A DNA stretch of 64,000 bases from an uncultured Alphaproteobacteria bacterium (GTDB lineage Bacteria > Pseudomonadota > Alphaproteobacteria > Sphingomonadales > Sphingomonadaceae). Shown in pieces: positions 2,044 to 49,061 of this stretch; position 1 is the stretch's first letter, and each line of letters starts with the position of its first letter. Where the stretch lies: the NCBI GenBank assembly GCA_963750385.1, contig CAVVQJ010000003.1:16831-80830 (forward strand), given 5' to 3'. The notes beneath the pieces are model-generated. The model was not told the DNA's origin, searched no databases, and worked only from the letters and a program-made list of their open reading frames with translations. Made by a program: the position numbers and the translations under genes.

Positions 2044-6382
<4,339 letters not shown>

Positions 6383-6386
6383 TCAG

Positions 6387-10557
<4,171 letters not shown>

Positions 10558-42571: not shown

Positions 42572-43279
42572 ATGCGCAAAATCTATTCGGATGCCGAGGC
42601 CGCGCTTGAAGGGCTGTTGTTCGACGGCATGACGATCGCCGCTGGCGGGTTCGGCCTTTGCGGAATTCCGGAGCGGCTGATCGACGCGCTGGTCGCGAGC
42701 GGGGTCAAGGACCTCACCATCGCGTCGAACAATGCCGGGATCGACAATGAAGGGCTCGGCAAGCTGCTTCGCACCCGCCAGGTCAAGAAGATGATCTCGT
42801 CCTACGTCGGCGAGAACAAGGAGTTCGAGCGGCAATTCCTCGCCGGCGAGCTGGAGGTCGAATTCTGTCCGCAGGGCACTTTGGCCGAGCGTATGCGCGC
42901 CGGCGGCGCTGGAATCCCCGGTTTCTATACGAAGACCGGCGTCGGAACGCAGGTCGCGGAAGGCAAGGAATCGAAGAGCTTCGACGGTGAGGAATATATC
43001 CTCGAGCGCGGGATTCGCGCCGACCTCAGCATCGTCAAGGGGTGGAAGGCGGACGAGGCGGGCAATCTCATGTTCCGCAAGACTGCGCGCAACTTCAACC
43101 AGCCGGCGGCGACCTGCGGCAAGGTCTGCGTCGCCGAGGTCGAGGAAATCGTACCCATCGGATCGCTCGATTCCGACTGCATCCATCTGCCGTCCATCTA
43201 TGTGAAGCGGCTGATCAGCGGCGCGCCGTACGACAAGAAGATCGAATTCCGCACGGTCCGCGAAAGGGAGACGGCCTGA
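42572..43279 (+). CDS. scoA: 3-oxoacid CoA-transferase subunit A
   Basis: [34 protein letters not shown]...SNNAG...[20 protein letters not shown]. Confidence 0.93.
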
Positions 43280-43935
43280 TGAGCACCGACACCATCGCCA
43301 AGGGCTGGACCCGCGACCAGATGGCGGCGCGGGCGGCGAAAGAGCTTCGCGACGGCTATTACGTCAACCTCGGCATCGGCATCCCGACGCTTGTCGCGAA
43401 CAATATTCCCGAGGGCATGACCGTCACACTGCAAAGCGAGAACGGGATGCTTGGAATCGGGCCGTTCCCCTATGACGACGAAGTCGACGCCGACCTGATC
43501 AACGCCGGCAAGCAGACCATTAGCGAGCTTCCATCCTCATCCTATTTCAGCAGCAGCGACAGCTTCGCGATGATCCGTGGCGGTCACATCGATTTGACCG
43601 TGCTCGGAGCGATGGAAGTCAGCGAGAAGGGGGACATCGCCAACTGGATGATTCCGGGCAAGATGATCAAGGGCATGGGCGGGGCGATGGACCTCGTCGC
43701 CGGGGTCAAGAAGATCATCGTCGTCATGGAGCATGTGTCCAAGAACGGCGACCCGAAGTTCATCCCCGAATGCACGCTTCCGCTGACCGGCAAGAATGTC
43801 GTCGACATGATCATCACCGATCTTGCCGTGTTCCAGCGGCCGGATCATGACAGCGCTTTCAAGCTGATCGAGTTGGCGCCGGGCGTCACCGCCGAGGAAG
43901 TGCGCGAAAAAACGACCGCGAATTACGAACTATGA
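43279..43935 (+). CDS. scoB: 3-oxoacid CoA-transferase subunit B
   Basis: [14 protein letters not shown]...LQSENGMLG...GMGGAMDLV... (the SENG catalytic Glu motif). Its ATG overlaps the scoA TGA by 1 nt (43279). Confidence 0.93.
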
Positions 43936-44795
43936 CAATTCGCGCTCTACTCCCATTGCTGGTGGTGGTTGCTTCGACGTCAGCCAGCGCCGAGGTGCCG
44001 ATCACGATTGCCAAAACCGGCCATGCGACGGTCCCGGTAATCGGCCCATTCGGAACCGAGTTTTTCGTATTCGATACGGGTGCAGGCGGGAGTGCGGTTT
44101 ACTCTGATTTCCAGAAGGCAAATAATTTTCCTGCCGGAGTGGGTGATGTTCTCACCGGCCAGACAGGCAGTTCCGAGCTACCAACTGTCATCCTCCCGCC
44201 AGTCACTCTCGACGGTCGCCGGGCCGAGGCGCTGGAGGCTGTCGTATTCCCGGCCAGGGCCGACGGCGTCCCTCTTCCGGGGGTGGTAGGCTTAGATCTG
44301 TTCGGCAAGATGACGGTCGACTTCGATCTGCCCAATCGACGCCTCGCCTTATTCAATTCCGGCCATATTCCGCCGGGAGTGACCGATCGGCCAGTGGCCA
44401 TTCAGACCACTACCGGCGATCTCCTGACCATGACACTGTCCATATCGGGAATCCCTGCCACGGCGGTGATCGACACCGGAGCGCGGAAGACCCGCATCAA
44501 CTGGAAGCTCGGCAAGTTGCTTTCCCTTTCGCCGGAAGCGCTAACCCCGGGGGATGTTATCTATGGTGCCACCAACGTGCCCATCGAGAGCTATTCCGGT
44601 ACGGTGAAGGATGTCTTGCTCGGCGGCCGGCATTTGCCCGAGGCGCCGGTGTTGGTGGCCGACTTACCCGTTTTTGAAGTGTTTGGAGTGGCCGACAAGC
44701 CTGCCGTGATCCTTGGGCTCGACTGGCTTGAGCAGACCCGGATGATCCTCGACATACCGGAGCGCAAGGCATGGTTTTTGACCGCTTCCGAATAG
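43932..44795 (+). CDS. secreted two-domain retropepsin-like aspartic protease
   Basis: Signal peptide; two D-T-G-A motifs ([10 protein letters not shown] and [10 protein letters not shown]), each followed by a GxxGLD(L/W) flap-like motif. ATGA overlap with the scoB stop. Confidence 0.7.
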
Positions 44796-45061
44796 GATCG
44801 GTTGTATCCATCGCACTGCTTTGCAGCGGCTGTTCCAATCGCGAGCCGACTATCATCGACGGGTCGACCGGCGAGAATTTCGAAGCGACGTCGCAGGCCG
44901 CGCGCTTCGACCTGCCGATCGGCGATCGCCTGGCGTTCGACGCCGCGGTCAGGAACCCGCCCGGCCGCCGCTACGGCTCCACTTCGGCCCAGGTGGATGC
45001 TCTTGCACGGCAAACCTATGATGGGATGACTGCGGCCGAAGTGGTCAATTCTGCGCGGTAA
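44771..45061 (+). CDS. small lipoprotein, paralog of 46975..47253
   Basis: Lipobox LCSGC; PTIIDGSTGENFEATSQAARFDLPIGDRLAFDAAV...RRYG...YDGMTAAEVV aligns along its length with the 46975 protein. Confidence 0.6.
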   Translation: MVFDRFRIGSVVSIALLCSGCSNREPTIIDGSTGENFEATSQAARFDLPIGDRLAFDAAVRNPPGRRYGSTSAQVDALARQTYDGMTAAEVVNSAR

Positions 45062-45079
45062 GCGACGGGGAGCAAGATT

Positions 45080-45310
45080 ATGCGTTTTTGGTTGGTGGGA
45101 TTGATCGCGTCGGCAATTGCTTCGGGCGCTGCGACTAAGCCCGCTCCCCCGGTCGAACTTTGGCGGCTCGATTGCGGAACGATCGACATCGACGACCTCG
45201 CGGTGTTCCAGCGGCCCGACCACGGCAGTCCATTCAAGTTAATCGAGCTGGCGCCCGGCGTGACGGCCGAAGATGTTCTGGCCAGGACGTCGGCGAACTA
45301 CGTCGAGTAA
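45080..45310 (+). pseudogene. chimeric relic ORF: MBL-hydrolase N-terminus fused to scoB C-terminus
   Basis: Residues 1-40 (signal peptide...VELWRLDCGTIDIDDL) parallel 47263.. (MQLWRLDCGSLDVDL). Residues 40-76 ([37 protein letters not shown]) parallel the scoB end ([37 protein letters not shown]). The homology is also visible at DNA level. Confidence 0.65.
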
Positions 45311-45314
45311 GCCG

Positions 45315-46280
45315 ATGCGCATCTTGCTTACCGGCTCGTCCGGATGGCTTGGTCGGTTCCTCGCGCCGATGCTGCGTGAGGCGGGGCACGAGGTTATCGG
45401 TCTCGATGTTGCTCCCGGCTTGGACACGCAGCTTGTTGGCTCGGTCGCTGATCGCGAGCTGATCGACTGGGCGTTTGACGGCAAGGGCATCGAAGCCGTG
45501 ATCCACGGTGGTGCGCTGCATAAGCCCGATATCGTCCGCTGCCCTCGCCAAGCCTTCGTCGACGTGAATGTGACGGGCACGCTCAACCTGCTCGAAGCGG
45601 CGGTGGCGGCGGGGCACGACCGCTTCATTTTCACATCCACAACGTCGTTGATGATCAGCCAGGCGATCCGCGACGAGAGTGCTGATCATGCGGTGTGGAT
45701 CAATGAAAGCCTGTCGCCGCTGGAGCCGCGCAATATCTACGGCGTCACCAAATTGGCCGCCGAGCGTCTCTGCCGGTTGTTCCATATGGATCATGGGCTG
45801 GCGGTCGCGATCCTCCGGACGTCGCGCTTTTTCCCGGAGGATGACGATACGCATGAGCAGCCGTCCGGTCCCAACCTCAAGGCCAATGAATTTCTCCACC
45901 GCCGCTTGACGGTCGAAGATGCGGCGCGAGCGCATGTCGTGGCGCTTGACCGGGCGCCCGAGATTGGCTTCGGCACATTCGTCATATCCGCTCCAACGCC
46001 ATTCGTTCCCAGCGAGGCGGAGGAGCTCAAGCGCGACGCGGCGTCGGTGATCCGGCGGCACTTCCCACAAGCGGCAGACCTCTATGCGCGCAAGGGCTGG
46101 GCCCTGCCCCGGTCAATCGGCCGGGTTTATGACGCCGGGCTTGCCGAACGGCGGCTTGGTTTTCGCTGCCAAACCGACTTTGCCGCAGTGCTTGCCGCGC
46201 TCGATCGCGGTGAGTCCATGCCCTTCGCGCACGATCCTGGCTATGCTTCGCCCATCCTGAGGTCCCGTCCGGGCACTTGA
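45315..46280 (+). CDS. NAD-dependent epimerase/dehydratase family protein
   Basis: MRILLTGSSGWLGRFL (GxxGxxG)...STTSLM...YGVTKLAAE (YxxxK). Confidence 0.85.
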   Translation: MRILLTGSSGWLGRFLAPMLREAGHEVIGLDVAPGLDTQLVGSVADRELIDWAFDGKGIEAVIHGGALHKPDIVRCPRQAFVDVNVTGTLNLLEAAVAAGHDRFIFTSTTSLMISQAIRDESADHAVWINESLSPLEPRNIYGVTKLAAERLCRLFHMDHGLAVAILRTSRFFPEDDDTHEQPSGPNLKANEFLHRRLTVEDAARAHVVALDRAPEIGFGTFVISAPTPFVPSEAEELKRDAASVIRRHFPQAADLYARKGWALPRSIGRVYDAGLAERRLGFRCQTDFAAVLAALDRGESMPFAHDPGYASPILRSRPGT

Positions 46281-46978
46281 CGGGCCGTTCGGTCGCGCAC
46301 AGCATTCGCGCCATGTTCGGCGTCCTTCGAAACCGTTATCTCGATGTCCTCGGCTCGATCTATATTTACAACGAGCATCGCGGCTATGCGAGCATCGACC
46401 GCGTGCTCGCCGCCATAAAAAGCCGGTGGCCCGAAGACAGTAGTTTCATCGCCGAGGTGGAGAAGCACCGTGCCGACGAGCGAAAACATTATCTTTTGTT
46501 CCGCCGCTGGTTCGAGAAGCGCGGCGTGATGCCGCTTCAGGTCGACCGGACCTGCGGCCATATCGATCGGCTGGTGCGGCTGACCTTTGGCTGCAATGTC
46601 GACGACCTCGACCAGGATAGGGTCACCGGGGATCCCGAGCTGTTTGCCAGGCTGTGCCGGGTCATCGTGTTGACCGAGCAGCGCGGCATGCGGACGGTGG
46701 AAACGCTACTCCAATCGCCGTTGATCCATGGCGACAGCCGGCTCAACAAGATTTTCCACGTGATCGAAGTCGACGAACCGTCGCATTGGGCGCCCTATGT
46801 CGGCTGGCTCAAGCGCAATCGGGGTGGAGAGCCGCGGTTGAACGAGCGGATCGCAGACAAGATCGTCCATGCGACGATGCTGCTCGTGAAGCTGCCGGCG
46901 CTGTTCCTGAACCCGTTCGTCCGCCGCCGCGCCGACTGGCCCGACGCGTCCGACCCGGCCGCTCCTCTTCCGGCATGA
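46277..46978 (+). CDS. ferritin-like diiron-carboxylate protein (E...ExxH...E...ExxH), function unknown
   Basis: YNEH..., ADERKHY, LTEQRG, EVDEPSHW are spaced as in four-helix-bundle diiron proteins. TTGA overlap with the epimerase stop. The start could instead be the ATG at 46313. Confidence 0.55.
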   Translation: MTGRSVAHSIRAMFGVLRNRYLDVLGSIYIYNEHRGYASIDRVLAAIKSRWPEDSSFIAEVEKHRADERKHYLLFRRWFEKRGVMPLQVDRTCGHIDRLVRLTFGCNVDDLDQDRVTGDPELFARLCRVIVLTEQRGMRTVETLLQSPLIHGDSRLNKIFHVIEVDEPSHWAPYVGWLKRNRGGEPRLNERIADKIVHATMLLVKLPALFLNPFVRRRADWPDASDPAAPLPA

Positions 46979-47253
46979 GGGGCGTCGCGCTTGTCGTGGC
47001 ACTGGCCCTGATCGGCTGCGGCAAATCGCCGACCATCATCGATGGCTCGTCGCCAGAGGTATTTGCCAAGACAACGGAGAAGGCGAGGCGTGACCTGTCG
47101 ATCAGGGATCGGCTGACCTTCGACACGGCCATGAAGACGGTCGGCGGGCGCCGCTATGCCGACAATGATCCCGACGCCACGGCGCGCAACCTGTTCAACG
47201 GCATGACCGCGGCCGATGTTGTCGCGGATGCGCATGCGCGCGGAATCGAGTGA
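46975..47253 (+). CDS. small lipoprotein, paralog of 44771..45061
   Basis: MRGVALVVALALIGCGKSPTIIDGSSPEVFAKTTEKARRDLSIRDRLTFDTAM...RRYA...FNGMTAADVV. ATGA overlap with the upstream gene. Confidence 0.65.
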   Translation: MRGVALVVALALIGCGKSPTIIDGSSPEVFAKTTEKARRDLSIRDRLTFDTAMKTVGGRRYADNDPDATARNLFNGMTAADVVADAHARGIE

Positions 47254-47262
47254 GGCGAACCC

Positions 47263-48066
47263 ATGAGAAATGCCATCATTGCCGGTCTGCTAATGTTCGC
47301 GGTTGCTCCAGCCGCGGCCCAGGCTCCGTCAATGCAACTCTGGAGGCTCGATTGCGGCTCGCTCGATGTCGATCTCGCCCAATTTTCCGACACCGGCCTT
47401 TACGCGGGGCAGAAACGCACGCTGGTCGCAAGCTGCTACCTGATCCGCGACGGGGACCGCTACCTGTTGTGGGATACGGGGCTAGATGGAGCGCTGGCCG
47501 GCAAGCCCAAGGACAAGCAGGGCAGCCTGCTGCAAGAACGGATCGCGCCGCAACTCGCGCGGATCGGCGTCAAGCCGGAAGCGATCAGCTTCGTCGGGAT
47601 CAGCCATTATCATTATGACCACACCGGCCAGCTTGCCGATTTCCCCCAATCGACCTTGCTGATCGGCAAGGGCGACTGGGACGTGGTCCAGAAATGGCCG
47701 GCGGCCAAGGCCCGTTTCGCGCCTTGGCTTGGCGGCAAATCGAAGGTCGAGCCGGTCGAAGGCGACAGGGACGTCTTCGGCGACGGCCGGGTGACGATGC
47801 TGAACATGCCCGGCCATACCGAGGGGCATCATGCCTTGCTGGTCAGGCTCGCCAGCGGCCCGGTGCTGCTGTCGGGCGACCAATATCATTTCACCGCGCA
47901 AGTGAAGAATCGCGGCGTGCCGACCTTCAACACCAGCAGGGCACAGACGCTGGCGTCGATGGATCGGTTCGATCGGCTTGCGGCGAACCTGAAGGCAAAG
48001 GTCGTCATTCAGCATGAGCCGGACGATGTCGCCAAGCTTCCCGCCTTCCCAAAGGCAGCCCAATGA
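47263..48066 (+). CDS. secreted MBL-fold metallo-hydrolase (N-acyl-homoserine-lactonase-like)
   Basis: Signal peptide; SHYHYDHTG (HxHxDH), MPGHTEGH, SGDQYH. Confidence 0.85.
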   Translation: MRNAIIAGLLMFAVAPAAAQAPSMQLWRLDCGSLDVDLAQFSDTGLYAGQKRTLVASCYLIRDGDRYLLWDTGLDGALAGKPKDKQGSLLQERIAPQLARIGVKPEAISFVGISHYHYDHTGQLADFPQSTLLIGKGDWDVVQKWPAAKARFAPWLGGKSKVEPVEGDRDVFGDGRVTMLNMPGHTEGHHALLVRLASGPVLLSGDQYHFTAQVKNRGVPTFNTSRAQTLASMDRFDRLAANLKAKVVIQHEPDDVAKLPAFPKAAQ

Positions 48067-49061
48067 AGGCGCTTCTGTCCCATTCGCCCGGCGGTCCCGA
48101 CACGCTTCGGCTGGACGATGTAGACGACCCCGTCGCCGGTCCCGGCGAATTGCTGGTCCGGGTCCGGGCGGCGGCGATCAACTATCCCGATGTGCTGATC
48201 ATCGAGGACAAATATCAATTCAAGCCGCCACGCCCGTTCGCTCCCGGCGGAGAGATTGGCGGGGTGGTCGAAGCGGCGGGTGAGGGGGTTTCCGGCTGGA
48301 CGGCGGGTGACCGGCTGATCGCGGTGCCGGGACATGGCGGCCTCGCGGAAAAGATCGTGATCCCGGCCAAGGCGGCCATCCCGTTGCCCGACGACCGGAG
48401 CTTCACCGAAGGCGCGGCCCTGTTGTTGACCTACGCCACCTCGATCCACGCGCTCTACGACCGCGGACGATTGGCGGAGGGTGAGACCTTGCTCGTCCTC
48501 GGCGCTGCCGGCGGCGTTGGACTGGCCGCGGTCGAGCTTGGCAAGGCGAAGGGCGCGCGGGTGATCGCTGCCGTATCGTCAGCGGAAAAGGCCGCGGCCG
48601 CGACGGACGCCGGTGCCGACGAGGCAATCGTCTATCCACGAGGCCCGTTCGATCGCGATGGGCAGAAAGCGCTGGCGCAGCAGTTCAAGGATGCCGTTGG
48701 CTCGTCGGGTGCGGACGTCATTTATGATCCGGTCGGCGGCGATTATGCCGAACCCGCGCTGCGCAGTATTGCGTGGGAGGGCCGCTATCTGGTCGTCGGT
48801 TTCCCGGCCGGCATCCCCAGACTTCCACTCAACCTGACGCTGCTCAAGAGCTGCGACGTGTGCGGCGTTTTCTGGGGCGCCTTCGCGGCGCGCGATCCCA
48901 AGGCGAACGCGGCGCATGTCCAGACTCTGTTCCGCTTGTGGGCGGAGGGGAAAATCGGGCCGAAGGTGAGCGCGACCTATGCGCTGGCGGAAGGCGGCAA
49001 GGCGATTTCGGCGATGGCCGGCCGGCGCGCGATAGGCAAATTGGTCGTGACCATCGACTAG
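48063..49061 (+). CDS. NADPH:quinone oxidoreductase / zinc-type alcohol dehydrogenase superfamily
   Basis: ELLVRVRAAAINYPDVL..., LVLGAAGGVGLAAVELGKAKGARVI. ATGA overlap with the MBL gene stop. Confidence 0.88.
   Translation: MKALLSHSPGGPDTLRLDDVDDPVAGPGELLVRVRAAAINYPDVLIIEDKYQFKPPRPFAPGGEIGGVVEAAGEGVSGWTAGDRLIAVPGHGGLAEKIVIPAKAAIPLPDDRSFTEGAALLLTYATSIHALYDRGRLAEGETLLVLGAAGGVGLAAVELGKAKGARVIAAVSSAEKAAAATDAGADEAIVYPRGPFDRDGQKALAQQFKDAVGSSGADVIYDPVGGDYAEPALRSIAWEGRYLVVGFPAGIPRLPLNLTLLKSCDVCGVFWGAFAARDPKANAAHVQTLFRLWAEGKIGPKVSATYALAEGGKAISAMAGRRAIGKLVVTID

Follow-up and report, generated by a model that had tools for sequence, protein, structure and literature searches.

A 76-aa ORF joins the head of one gene to the tail of another

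In the 64,000-nucleotide (nt) stretch of sphingomonad DNA analyzed here (the window), a 76-amino-acid (aa) ORF lies between two blocks of related genes. This raises the question of whether the region was duplicated in place or whether one block came from elsewhere. A sequence-only reading had described the ORF as a mosaic and the region as a tandem duplication with later differential loss or gain. All ORFs that it named were located as described. The features are as follows.

42572 to 43279, + strand: scoA, 3-oxoacid CoA-transferase subunit A (Pfam CoA_trans, E 2.7e-74)
43279 to 43935, + strand: scoB, full length, 218 aa (Pfam CoA_trans, E 3e-48)
43819 to 45193, + strand: repeat unit of 1375 bp with the scoB' tail, aspP', lipo1 and MBL' codons 1-38; its right edge is the junction, its left edge the start of the repeat and not a mapped crossover
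43932 to 44795, + strand: aspP', secreted retropepsin-like aspartyl protease (Pfam Asp_protease_2, E 9e-17)
44771 to 45061, + strand: lipo1, small lipoprotein (weak Pfam DUF6694 match)
45080 to 45310, + strand: chimeric 76-aa ORF, head from 45080 to ~45193, tail ~45194-45310
45187 to 45202, + strand: junction zone CATCGACGACCTCGCG, encoding I-D-D-L-A, aligning to both the MBL head and the scoB tail
45315 to 46280, + strand: epim, NAD-dependent epimerase/dehydratase family (Pfam Epimerase, E 2e-26)
46277 to 46978, + strand: unk233, conserved 233-aa protein, family unassigned
46975 to 47253, + strand: lipo2, small lipoprotein (weak Pfam DUF6694 match)
47263 to 48066, + strand: MBL, full-length secreted MBL-fold hydrolase (Pfam Lactamase_B, E 3.5e-20)
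48063 to 49061, + strand: QOR, Zn-dependent alcohol dehydrogenase/quinone oxidoreductase (Pfam ADH_zinc_N and ADH_N)

The scoA product is 82-93% identical to those of about 30 sphingomonad loci, and QOR is present on the 3' side in nearly all related loci. The two genes are conserved upstream and downstream anchors that border a variable region. In Sphingomonadales, the contents of the slot between scoA-scoB and QOR differ by lineage and combine genes for aspP, epimerase, unk233, a small lipoprotein, an MBL hydrolase and a SulP permease. In the window, the start of aspP' overlaps the scoB stop (ATGA). The MBL protein is AHL-lactonase-like, with 85-87 bits to the AttM/AiiA-like NCBIfam models, which is under the family cut-off; unk233, previously called a diiron protein, had zero matches in Pfam or NCBIfam.

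The mosaic nature of ORF 45080-45310 was confirmed, both similarities being far above chance. Its head corresponds to the signal peptide and first ~38 codons of MBL', and its tail to scoB codons 181-218 plus stop, probably the native ones. As had been estimated by eye, the resemblance of the scoB tail to the chimera tail is visible in the DNA: identity is 74% over 116 nt (43812-43927 versus 45187-45302), with a local alignment score of 82 versus 18.8 +/- 2.7 in codon-shuffled controls (z ~23). The MBL head and the chimera head are 74% identical over 50 nt (47323-47372 versus 45143-45192; z ~9). Furthermore, a second lipoprotein copy adjoins an MBL head, as had been noticed: lipo1 and lipo2 resemble each other as divergent paralogues, again far above chance (~48-51% aa identity; tblastn E 1e-16 to 1e-19; DNA-level z ~16). 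Since an offset of 2177-2180 nt is common to the lipoprotein pair and the MBL head, these form one collinear block, while the two scoB tails are offset by 1375. Both halves of the chimera show low pN/pS against their homologues.

The proposed microhomology strings were found (GATCTTGCC at 43819, GACCTCGCG at 45194 and GATCTCGCC at 47371), and the join does fall in a short patch common to both genes. Positions 45187-45200 of the chimera can be aligned with either parental gene type, and the scoB-tail and MBL-head repeat families overlap at 45187-45192. With locus L098 of a related genome, the MBL head aligns to 45150-45200 and the scoB tail to 45187-45306; the alignment with L076 begins at 45193. 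The motif is DDLGVF or ADLGVF in the MBL alleles from L004, L005 and L003 and TDLAVF in scoB. These alignments place a putative illegitimate, in-frame crossover within 45187-45202 or the next two codons (V-F).

The junction is present in independent assemblies

In run ERR11523665, a 1652-nt Logan contig (L075) matches the window at 43794-45445 with 2 mismatches; it covers the scoB tail, aspP, lipo1 and the chimera and extends into epim. The junction is also crossed by Logan unitigs of two other soil samples (X1, 45146-45334, 0 mismatches; X3, 45133-45298, 1 mismatch). Since the contig and the unitigs from other samples span it, the junction is real and not an assembly artefact. That a contig wrongly joined two co-occurring sphingomonad populations is hardly credible, even for a soil metagenome with many co-occurring related scoB variants and a conserved scoB body of high depth with many variant contigs, since the repeats share exact matches of at most ~14 nt, too short for a k-mer mis-join.

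Copy 2 resembles native loci and copy 1 is the outlier

Unduplicated scoB...lipoprotein-MBL loci had been predicted for relatives, and these were indeed found (L001, L038 and L083). Among unduplicated loci, the order scoB-aspP-lipo-MBL-QOR (type A) occurs in L083 (the complete S. xanthus genome), L090 and L092, and scoB-epim-unk-lipo-QOR (type B) in L076-L080; both aspP and epim are found in the single-copy loci L098, L099 and L103. The duplication is absent from all 36 related loci with scoB.

From the junction onward, copy 2 (scoB tail, epim, unk233, lipo2 and MBL) is collinear with natural unduplicated loci. Window positions 45193-47253 match L076 from the scoB tail through lipo at 78% over 2083 nt, the match starting exactly at the junction. 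In comparison to L076 and L098, copy-2 genes show 72-85% aa identity and flanking backbone genes 74-95%, whereas the copy-1 cargo reaches only 49-60%. Among the copy-2 genes, epim is 85% identical to that of L076, where it likewise follows the scoB end, and 84-89% identical to those of L098 and L103; unk233 shares 84% with L076 and 54-57% with Sphingomonas loci, and MBL 81% with L098 and 74% with L001. By these comparisons, copy 2 is native and copy 1 an outlier in character.

The protease gene of copy 1 belongs to a distinct lineage. It is 78% identical to aspP of L081, and the two form one lineage with 56-60% identity to aspP of 11 other loci, which are themselves 68-100% identical to each other. 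Even with L098 and L103, the closest backbone relatives, the window aspP shares 59-60%. The flanking genes of L081 are more distant from the window than those of L083, L034 or L076, so that sharing aspP with L081 constitutes an incongruence. L081, the only other carrier of this lineage, also contains a displaced scoB relic of its own, which covers residues ~148-218, lies between aspP and the native SulP gene and was confirmed by a Logan contig with 0 mismatches. The relics of L081 and the window share 68% identity, are not orthologous and have different junctions, which points to an independent event in L081.

The copies had diverged before being joined

The two scoB tails in the window are 71% identical over 38 codons, with 5, 6 and 22 differences by codon position, a saturated pS of 0.79 and a pN of 0.13. 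Thus, the resemblance between them does not exceed that between scoB tails from different genera (median identity 75%). The nearest sequences to the chimera tail are those of L076 (82.5%) and L034 (80%), and not the resident scoB tail. One residue in the chimera tail and one in the resident tail are absent from 94 orthologue tails, and the chimera tail looks like a normal functional scoB tail with no sign of decay. When neutral drift to synonymous saturation was simulated, the ORF was still open in <5% of runs, and <=9 amino acid changes in the tail were seen in <0.5%. The simulation, set against the constrained and open tail, leads us to reject long neutral drift of the relic.

The lipoproteins show a similar picture: lipo2 is 74-77% identical to the L034 and L076 lipoproteins, 63-64% to that of L001 and ~51% to lipo1, while lipo1 is ~50% identical to lipo2 and to every orthologue. 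In two database searches, no lipo1 relative with >57% identity was found. Lipo1 is without the C-terminal HARGIE motif and has a pN of 0.32-0.36 against all compared; this high pN and the truncated C-terminus could equally result from relaxed selection on a redundant duplicate. Taken together, the comparisons show that the two copies diverged before being joined. Sampled relatives are all far from the window (pS 0.45-0.6 even in native genes), which leaves the event poorly dated, and an allele of this soil population predating the insertion was not seen.

Additive integration of foreign DNA into scoB probably explains the locus

We consider the region to be, probably, the scar of an additive (non-replacing) integration of foreign DNA in a recombination-prone variable region, and not an in-place duplication. 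The ancestor of the soil population would have carried scoA-scoB-epim-unk233-lipo2-MBL-QOR. A fragment arranged scoB'-aspP'-lipo1-MBL' and extending from inside scoB' to MBL' codon ~38 would have originated in a different sphingomonad lineage, or at a second, diverged site elsewhere in the same genome. Its left side may have paired with the resident scoB through homology. Its right end would have been joined illegitimately to the resident scoB at codon ~181, within a patch of <=~16-20 nt shared by chance between the unrelated genes (MBL, ...D-D-L-G/A-V-F...; scoB, ...T-D-L-A-V-F...). Because this patch has the same reading frame in MBL and scoB, the join would be in frame. As a result, scoB would have stayed intact with a donor 3' end (its last ~38 codons, 43819-43932, presumably donor-derived), aspP' and lipo1 would have been gained, and the displaced native scoB end would have been fused to the signal peptide and N-terminus of MBL', giving the 76-aa ORF. 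The displaced end is followed by epim after 4 nt.

We infer which way the DNA was transferred, that the left crossover was homologous, and the exact route; candidate routes are homology-facilitated illegitimate recombination (HFIR), integration of a circularised fragment by a single crossover, or deletion within an insertion that was originally larger. Maximum chi-square scans of scoA and scoB for the left crossover disagreed on the breakpoint, and their p values varied with the comparator (0.003 to 0.86). Neither a recombinase, on both strands, nor terminal inverted repeats were found in the insert. GC3 is lowest across 43819-45193 (0.66-0.71; gene mean 0.775 +/- 0.057), a modest signal (z ~-1.6). 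The aspP gene is at about the 5th percentile of GC3 among the genes of the window, and in L081 aspP has the lowest GC3 in its neighborhood. The scoB tail has a GC3 of 0.69-0.71 versus 0.84-0.85 in the body, and similar drops occur in relatives without the insert. Database searches found no donor genome (best aspP relative 78%, best lipo1 relative <=57%), and foreign origin thus rests on incongruence rather than on a matched donor.

Comparison with known systems

Examples of HFIR are known from naturally transformed Acinetobacter, Streptococcus pneumoniae and Pseudomonas stutzeri and from E. coli conjugation (work cited in PMC5361080; PMC3240628), and displacement of this type leaves orphaned 3' regions (PMC5361080). 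The locus shares with HFIR a single homologous anchor (here scoB) with the other end joined illegitimately at a microhomology of a few bases, and recombinase or mobile-element features are unnecessary. However, classical HFIR usually deletes recipient DNA beside the anchor, whereas here the join lies upstream of the anchor end, so that the recipient scoB tail would have been kept and duplicated. Moreover, the known cases come from non-sphingomonads, and the anchor crossover proposed here is deduced rather than mapped.

Among single-crossover integrants, 56/60 carried a 109-950-bp lacZ duplication of the anchor (PMC3240628). Similarly, the window has a putatively foreign insert between direct repeats of an anchor segment, and its repeat of ~116 nt is inside the reported range. 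A Campbell-type event would, however, require an inefficient crossover within ~116 bp of ~75%-identical sequence, and the joint of the circle (MBL' head to scoB' tail) would predate integration. By sequence alone, this route is indistinguishable from the others.

Rhs, CDI and T6SS effector loci undergo C-terminal displacement with orphan 3' fragments (Jackson et al. 2009 and others, as cited in PMC5361080). There, too, a conserved 5' body gains a new 3' end with cargo while the displaced 3' end persists farther downstream as an orphan fragment, and recurrence in an independent genome (L081) fits this likeness. In contrast to those loci, the target here is a housekeeping metabolic gene whose two tails have the same function, the cargo (aspartyl protease and lipoprotein) is without toxin-immunity logic, and there is one relic and no array, fused in frame to an unrelated gene fragment. 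The event is of a known kind, probably a clean but ordinary scar of horizontal transfer.

Alternative histories of the region

Deletions between short chance homologies are common, and the junction might be a deletion scar. A second whole locus, foreign or paralogous (...scoB'-aspP'-lipo1-MBL'-...-scoA-scoB-epim...), would once have stood in tandem after an insertion or duplication, and the stretch from MBL' codon ~38 to scoB codon ~181 would later have been deleted at the DL(A/G)VF patch. The final architecture would be identical, the constrained head and tail would be explained by residence in functional genes until the deletion, and independent trimming deletions predict that the L081 relic starts at another codon (~148), as it does. 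Nevertheless, we regard this history as unlikely. It needs two events where one suffices, two complete tandem loci were found in 0/36 related loci, and the intervening genes left no trace. In addition, the relics of the window and L081, with their 68% identity and lack of orthology, exclude a shared double-locus ancestor.

Tandem duplications have join points at short homologies, and the single novel downstream-head-to-upstream-tail junction at a microhomology, between units in direct orientation, is of this classic form. This part of the earlier proposal stood: the 76-aa ORF is indeed the relic of a head-to-tail junction. Its second part, that the copies were made in place, did not. It would require duplication of [scoB tail ... 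MBL head] in an ancestor scoB-aspP-epim-unk233-lipo-MBL, long divergence, and complementary losses of epim and unk233 from copy 1 and of aspP from copy 2. An ancestor with aspP and epim is represented by the single-copy loci L098, L099 and L103, and lipo1 resembles a relaxed, truncated duplicate. However, the tails share 71% with each other versus 80-82% with other genomes, and lipo2 shares 74-76% with orthologues versus 51% with lipo1. For aspP, vertical descent predicts ~70-85% identity to L098/L103, well above that observed. The units differ in gene content and have diverged like orthologues of different genera, which argues that they were not copied from resident DNA. A saturation age conflicts with the simulations and with a tail that looks fully functional, at least 3 extra events are needed, and 0/36 related scoB loci show such a duplication, the L081 relic being a separate event. 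In-place duplication is therefore improbable, and the model is strongly disfavoured against additive integration.

The 76-aa ORF is most likely a non-functional by-product

The chimera could now be a selected small secreted protein in which the MBL signal peptide exports the 38-aa scoB C-terminus. The ORF is intact, is preceded by a good Shine-Dalgarno sequence (GGGGAG at 45067-45072, 7 nt upstream), has a signal peptide-like N-terminus and occupies a tight position in an apparent operon where terminators are not above chance, and pN/pS is low in both halves. However, the past of both halves in functional genes before a recent join explains the low pN/pS. The C-terminal 38 residues of a CoA-transferase subunit are not known to fold or function autonomously. 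The ORF had no match in Pfam or NCBIfam. A combined head and tail was found only in the window's own protein among 5.8 billion proteins, and the junction peptide was absent from JGI metagenome DNA. In line with the earlier suggestion, the ORF is thus a relic unique in the databases and not a conserved gene family. We consider a selected function very improbable and the ORF most likely a non-functional by-product of the integration. It would nevertheless probably be co-transcribed and translated.

A mosaic ORF at the junction of two diverged direct repeats

The ORF at 45080-45310 is a mosaic with an MBL head and a scoB tail, and the ORFs and similarities stand as they were described from the sequence alone. 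The features of the region are as follows.

43819-45193: copy 1 (scoB tail, aspP, lipo1 and MBL' head)
43932-44795: aspP
44771-45061: lipoprotein gene lipo1
45080-45310: chimeric ORF of 76 amino acids
45315-46280: epimerase gene (epim)
46277-46978: gene of a 233-aa protein (unk233)
46975-47253: lipoprotein gene lipo2
47263-48066: full-length MBL gene
48063-49061: quinone oxidoreductase gene (QOR)

Over 116 nt, the terminal part of scoB (43812-43927) matches that of the chimera (45187-45302) at 74% identity, with an alignment score of 82 versus 18.8 ± 2.7 in codon-shuffled controls. Likewise, a 50-nt stretch at the MBL start (47323-47372) shows 74% identity to the chimera head (45143-45192; z about 9), and lipo1 and lipo2 are clear paralogues, as had been proposed. 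Since the lipoprotein pair and the MBL head have a common offset of about 2180 nt, they form one collinear block; the offset of the scoB tails is 1375. The region contains units in direct repeat and a single novel head-to-tail junction, at 45187-45202.

The DNA originates from an uncultured soil-metagenome population. A Logan contig (L075), which is independent of the assembly of the window, corresponds to positions 43794-45445 with 2 mismatches, and unitigs from two further soil samples cross the junction with 0-1 mismatch. The repeats share no exact match longer than about 14 nt, so that a k-mer mis-assembly is not credible.

All microhomology strings quoted in the sequence-only reading were found. 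The 9-nt microhomology was correctly identified, but the shared patch is probably longer, since the parental allele was not that of the resident MBL. The MBL alleles of three related loci (L004, L005 and L003) read ...LD-I-(D/G/A)-D-L-G-V-F-S-D-T..., and the motif DL(A/G)VF is present in both the MBL and the scoB gene families. At locus L098, the MBL head aligns to window positions 45150-45200 (86%) and the scoB tail to 45187-45306 (80%); over a junction zone of 14-16 nt, the sequence can be aligned with either an MBL head or a scoB tail. These overlapping alignments place the crossover inside a patch of about 14-20 nt shared in the same frame by two unrelated genes, and because the frame is the same in both, the in-frame fusion needs no selection. 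The right side is a putative illegitimate join at a short microhomology.

The repeated units belong to different lineages

The sequence-only reading had explained the region by an in-place tandem duplication followed by differential loss or gain. Direct repeats with a single novel head-to-tail junction agree with this explanation. However, the units of such a duplication should be each other's closest relatives, and this holds for neither the tails nor the lipoproteins nor the MBL head.

The last 38 codons of the chimera are 71% identical to those of the resident scoB, with saturated synonymous sites (pS 0.79) and a pN of 0.13; the differences at codon positions 1, 2 and 3 number 5, 6 and 22. 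The median identity of scoB tails between genera is 75%. The chimera tail is closest to the tails of L076 (82.5%) and L034 (80%); few partners are more distant from it than the resident scoB. Each of the two tails has one residue that is absent from 94 orthologue tails, and the identity of the chimera tail to the consensus (84%) equals the orthologue mean. For an unconstrained relic, saturated synonymous sites would imply at least 0.3 substitutions per site. In a simulation of neutral drift at or above this level, allowing substitutions only, the ORF stayed open in at most 5% of the trials, and a tail with at most 9 amino-acid changes was obtained in at most 0.4%.

The other parts of the repeats behave similarly. 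lipo2 clusters with its counterparts from L034 and L076 (74-76%) and L001 (64%), while lipo1 is about 50% identical to the same three proteins and 51% identical to lipo2. The chimera head is 86% identical to the MBL head of L098 versus 74% to the window's own MBL. Furthermore, the gene content of the units differs, copy 1 carrying only aspP and copy 2 carrying epim and unk233, and tblastn detected no remnants of lost genes.

These data are far more simply explained if both halves of the chimera evolved inside functional genes of separate lineages and were joined recently. Long-lasting selection on the chimera itself would also account for the preserved tail, but it is the less simple explanation, as the chimera would have been maintained for a very long time without a homologue anywhere. 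We conclude that the observation is confirmed and its earlier interpretation in part supported: the junction relic and the microhomology hold, while the duplication does not, the units being of different lineages and most likely brought together by a heterologous insertion instead of by copying of resident DNA with differential loss. The case is also a warning about method: a tandem duplication can be mimicked by a head-to-tail join at a microhomology, and it is the divergence measured against orthologues that reveals the different-lineage origin of the repeated units.

Copy 2 is the resident locus and copy 1 the putative insert

Window positions 45193-47253 are collinear with the scoB tail, epim, unk and lipoprotein genes of L076 (78% over 2083 nt), and this alignment begins exactly at the junction. 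The copy-2 proteins are 72-85% identical to those of L076 and L098, comparable to the flanking genes (QOR, YkuD and others; 74-95%). This collinearity and the backbone-like identities indicate that copy 2 is the resident locus, with scoB cut upstream of codon 181.

The cargo of copy 1 is, as judged by sequence comparison, the outlier. Neither a word-indexed nor an exhaustive search found lipo1 relatives above 57%. The window aspP is 56-60% identical to the aspP genes of 11 other loci, which are 68-100% identical among themselves (median, 74%) and include L098 and L103, the closest backbone relatives of the window. The only close aspP is that of L081 (78%), and in the flanking genes L081 is more distant from the window than L083, L034 or L076. 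The aspP lineage and the backbone are therefore phylogenetically incongruent. In addition, GC3 is lowest across exactly 43819-45193 (0.66-0.71 versus a gene mean of 0.775 ± 0.057), which is only suggestive of foreign origin. Based on the aspP incongruence, the lipo1 outlier and the lowest GC3, the insert is of probable foreign (non-vertical) origin; the two lipo1 searches and the aspP search revealed no close donor, and no pre-insertion allele was found.

Two candidate signals of the left crossover were considered. The GC3 drop at the boundary between scoB body and tail was rejected as a marker, since insert-free relatives show drops of equal size (L001, -0.17; L038, -0.13). A bootscan-like sliding-window scan pointed to a switch towards L081 within scoB codons 110-190, but it was not confirmed by maximum chi-square tests, the breakpoints of which were inconsistent (p 0.003-0.86).

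A second displaced scoB tail in Sphingomicrobium

L081 is a Sphingomicrobium MAG (GCA_039934055.1, JBDTMX010000041.1); apart from the window, it alone carries the divergent aspP lineage. Its gene order is scoB-aspP-[scoB relic]-SulP-GST-QOR.

6861-7066 (L081): scoB relic of 209 nt with one frameshift, covering residues ~148-218 and 84% identical to the scoB of L081

The junction of this relic is covered by a Logan contig (L082) with 0 mismatches. The relics of the window and L081 are only 68% identical and begin at different codons (181 versus about 148), which rules out a shared ancestral event and shows that the two events were independent. In both loci, the relic is directly followed by the native next gene of the recipient.

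An ATGA in which the aspP start codon and the scoB stop codon overlap is present in each of the three loci checked (window, 43932-43935; L081, 5931-5934; L083, 7001-7004), which suggests translational coupling. Because of this overlap, aspP can be transferred only with a scoB tail attached.

Additive integration as the likely mechanism

The region is most likely the product of an additive integration, in which the incoming DNA was foreign (or a distant paralogue). The incoming fragment would have contained the 3' part of scoB', aspP', lipo1 and codons 1-38 of MBL'. It would have been anchored by homology in scoB, and its other end closed by an illegitimate join to the resident scoB at codon ~181. 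Possible routes are homology-facilitated illegitimate recombination, single-crossover integration of a circularised fragment, or a larger insertion that was later trimmed by deletion at the same patch. Single-crossover integration of circularised fragments duplicates 109-950 bp of the anchor (PMC3240628). A mobile element was rejected as an explanation: the insert has no terminal inverted repeats and encodes no recombinase, Pfam detecting only aspP and lipo1 and the shadow ORFs on both strands having no matches. Unlike in a site-specific integrative element that targets the 3' end of a gene, there is no integrase, the repeats are 71-74% identical instead of near-identical as att-like repeats would be, and the junctions of the window and L081 are at different scoB codons instead of at a fixed att position.

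The locus resembles C-terminal displacement loci (Rhs, CDI and T6SS). Displacement in Rhs and T6SS loci leaves orphaned 3' regions (PMC5361080); similarly, in the window and L081 a new 3' end with cargo replaces the old scoB end, which persists downstream as an orphan. In contrast to those toxin-immunity loci, both window tails encode the same conserved scoB C terminus, the target is a housekeeping gene, and the cargo is an Asp_protease_2 and a DUF6694-like lipoprotein. Moreover, instead of orphan arrays, a second scoB fragment beyond the window was present in only 1 of the 36 related loci with scoB.

Since aspP was directly downstream of scoB in every locus seen, we also considered whether a mobile aspP cassette, bringing a replacement scoB tail with it each time, docks repeatedly at the scoB 3' end, a reading that we regard as rather unlikely. 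If true, cargo in the scoAB-QOR slot would spread in Sphingomonadales by C-terminal displacement, a mechanism so far known mainly from polymorphic toxin loci. The displaced tail would then be visible only rarely, as in the window and L081, where the donor was divergent.

Under additive integration, the current understanding of mechanisms is unchanged, and the locus adds one very clear case to a known type of event. It is an unusually legible natural example of the integration of diverged homologous DNA, because both parental locus types are extant elsewhere and the join is placed within about 16 nt. The incoming scoB end would have restored the target scoB, with the in-frame fusion ORF as a by-product.

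The chimeric ORF is a junction relic

In a search of 5.8 billion proteins, head and tail were found together only in the window's own protein; the other 100 matches were C-terminal scoB fragments. When JGI metagenomes were scanned at the DNA level with a degenerate query for the junction peptide, there were 0 matches. The 76-aa protein belongs to no Pfam or NCBIfam family; only its last 38 residues are scoB-like, and the model threshold of the CoA-transferase family (PF01144) was not reached. In line with the sequence-only reading, the chimera is a junction relic and not a gene family. Its Shine-Dalgarno sequence is good, and the surrounding genes are closely spaced and apparently cotranscribed; a promoter and terminator scan found nothing above shuffled expectation, and a search for RNA-seq runs gave none. 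The chimera is probably made as a protein and is regarded as a by-product.

Short ORFs consisting of the scoB tail only (42-133 aa, on long contigs) were rejected as widespread relics. Their contexts (L084-L086; ENA ERZ250394xx/ERZ250395xx) are full of split genes, including Aldedh, QOR, scoA and scoB, so that they are frameshift artefacts of error-prone assemblies or internal-Met calls. Such spurious short "scoB tail" proteins in databases call for caution in relic surveys built on called proteins. Another protein (P0004; 86 aa, ENA contig of 2402 nt) has an RlmN-like N terminus (PF21016) and a scoB tail, fused at ...VVDMVITDLAVF..., and may reflect either a genuine rearrangement or a chimeric metagenome assembly.

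A hypervariable slot between scoAB and QOR

About 36 related loci were gathered with MBL, aspP and the lipoprotein as anchors. Across Sphingomonadales, the backbone scoA-scoB-[slot]-QOR is conserved and the gene combinations in the slot vary.

Gene combinations in the scoAB-QOR slot of related loci
MBL alone: L003-L005
lipo-MBL: L001, L038
epim-MBL: L006, L008, L011, L030
unk233-epim-MBL: L017, L020, L021, L031
epim-unk-lipo: L076-L080
aspP-lipo-MBL: L083 (complete S. xanthus genome), L090
aspP-SulP-lipo-MBL: L034
aspP-epim-lipo-MBL: L098

Other loci contain further combinations, and both aspP and epim are carried by L098, L099 and L103. The unduplicated ancestor that the sequence-only reading had predicted thus exists, in several versions. 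Except for L081, no duplication or second scoB fragment was found in the related loci.

The slot (window 42572-49061; L001-L038, L076, L081, L083 and L087-L105) is a small hypervariable region with aspP, NAD-epimerase, unk233, DUF6694-like lipoprotein, AHL-lactonase-like MBL, SulP permease and GST genes as cargo. Its copy in the window contains no mobile-element genes. In sphingomonads it represents a small recombination hot spot with combinatorial cargo, and it could serve as a natural system to study gene flux without mobile elements.

The "diiron" label previously given to unk233 was not borne out, as there was no Pfam or NCBIfam match. unk233 adjoins the epimerase gene in L076 (84%) and in Sphingomonas/Stakelama loci (54-57%), the latter with the order swapped (unk233 then epim). 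In L105, two tandem MBL paralogues (57% and 41% identical to the window MBL) are located at 3613-5330 between aspP and QOR; either a true duplication or two acquisitions within this slot could explain them. The full-length secreted MBL of the window resembles quorum-quenching AHL lactonases (AttM and AiiA models, 85-87 bits), with scores far below the equivalog cut-offs. At this locus, MBL alleles are unusually divergent among otherwise close relatives (49-81%).
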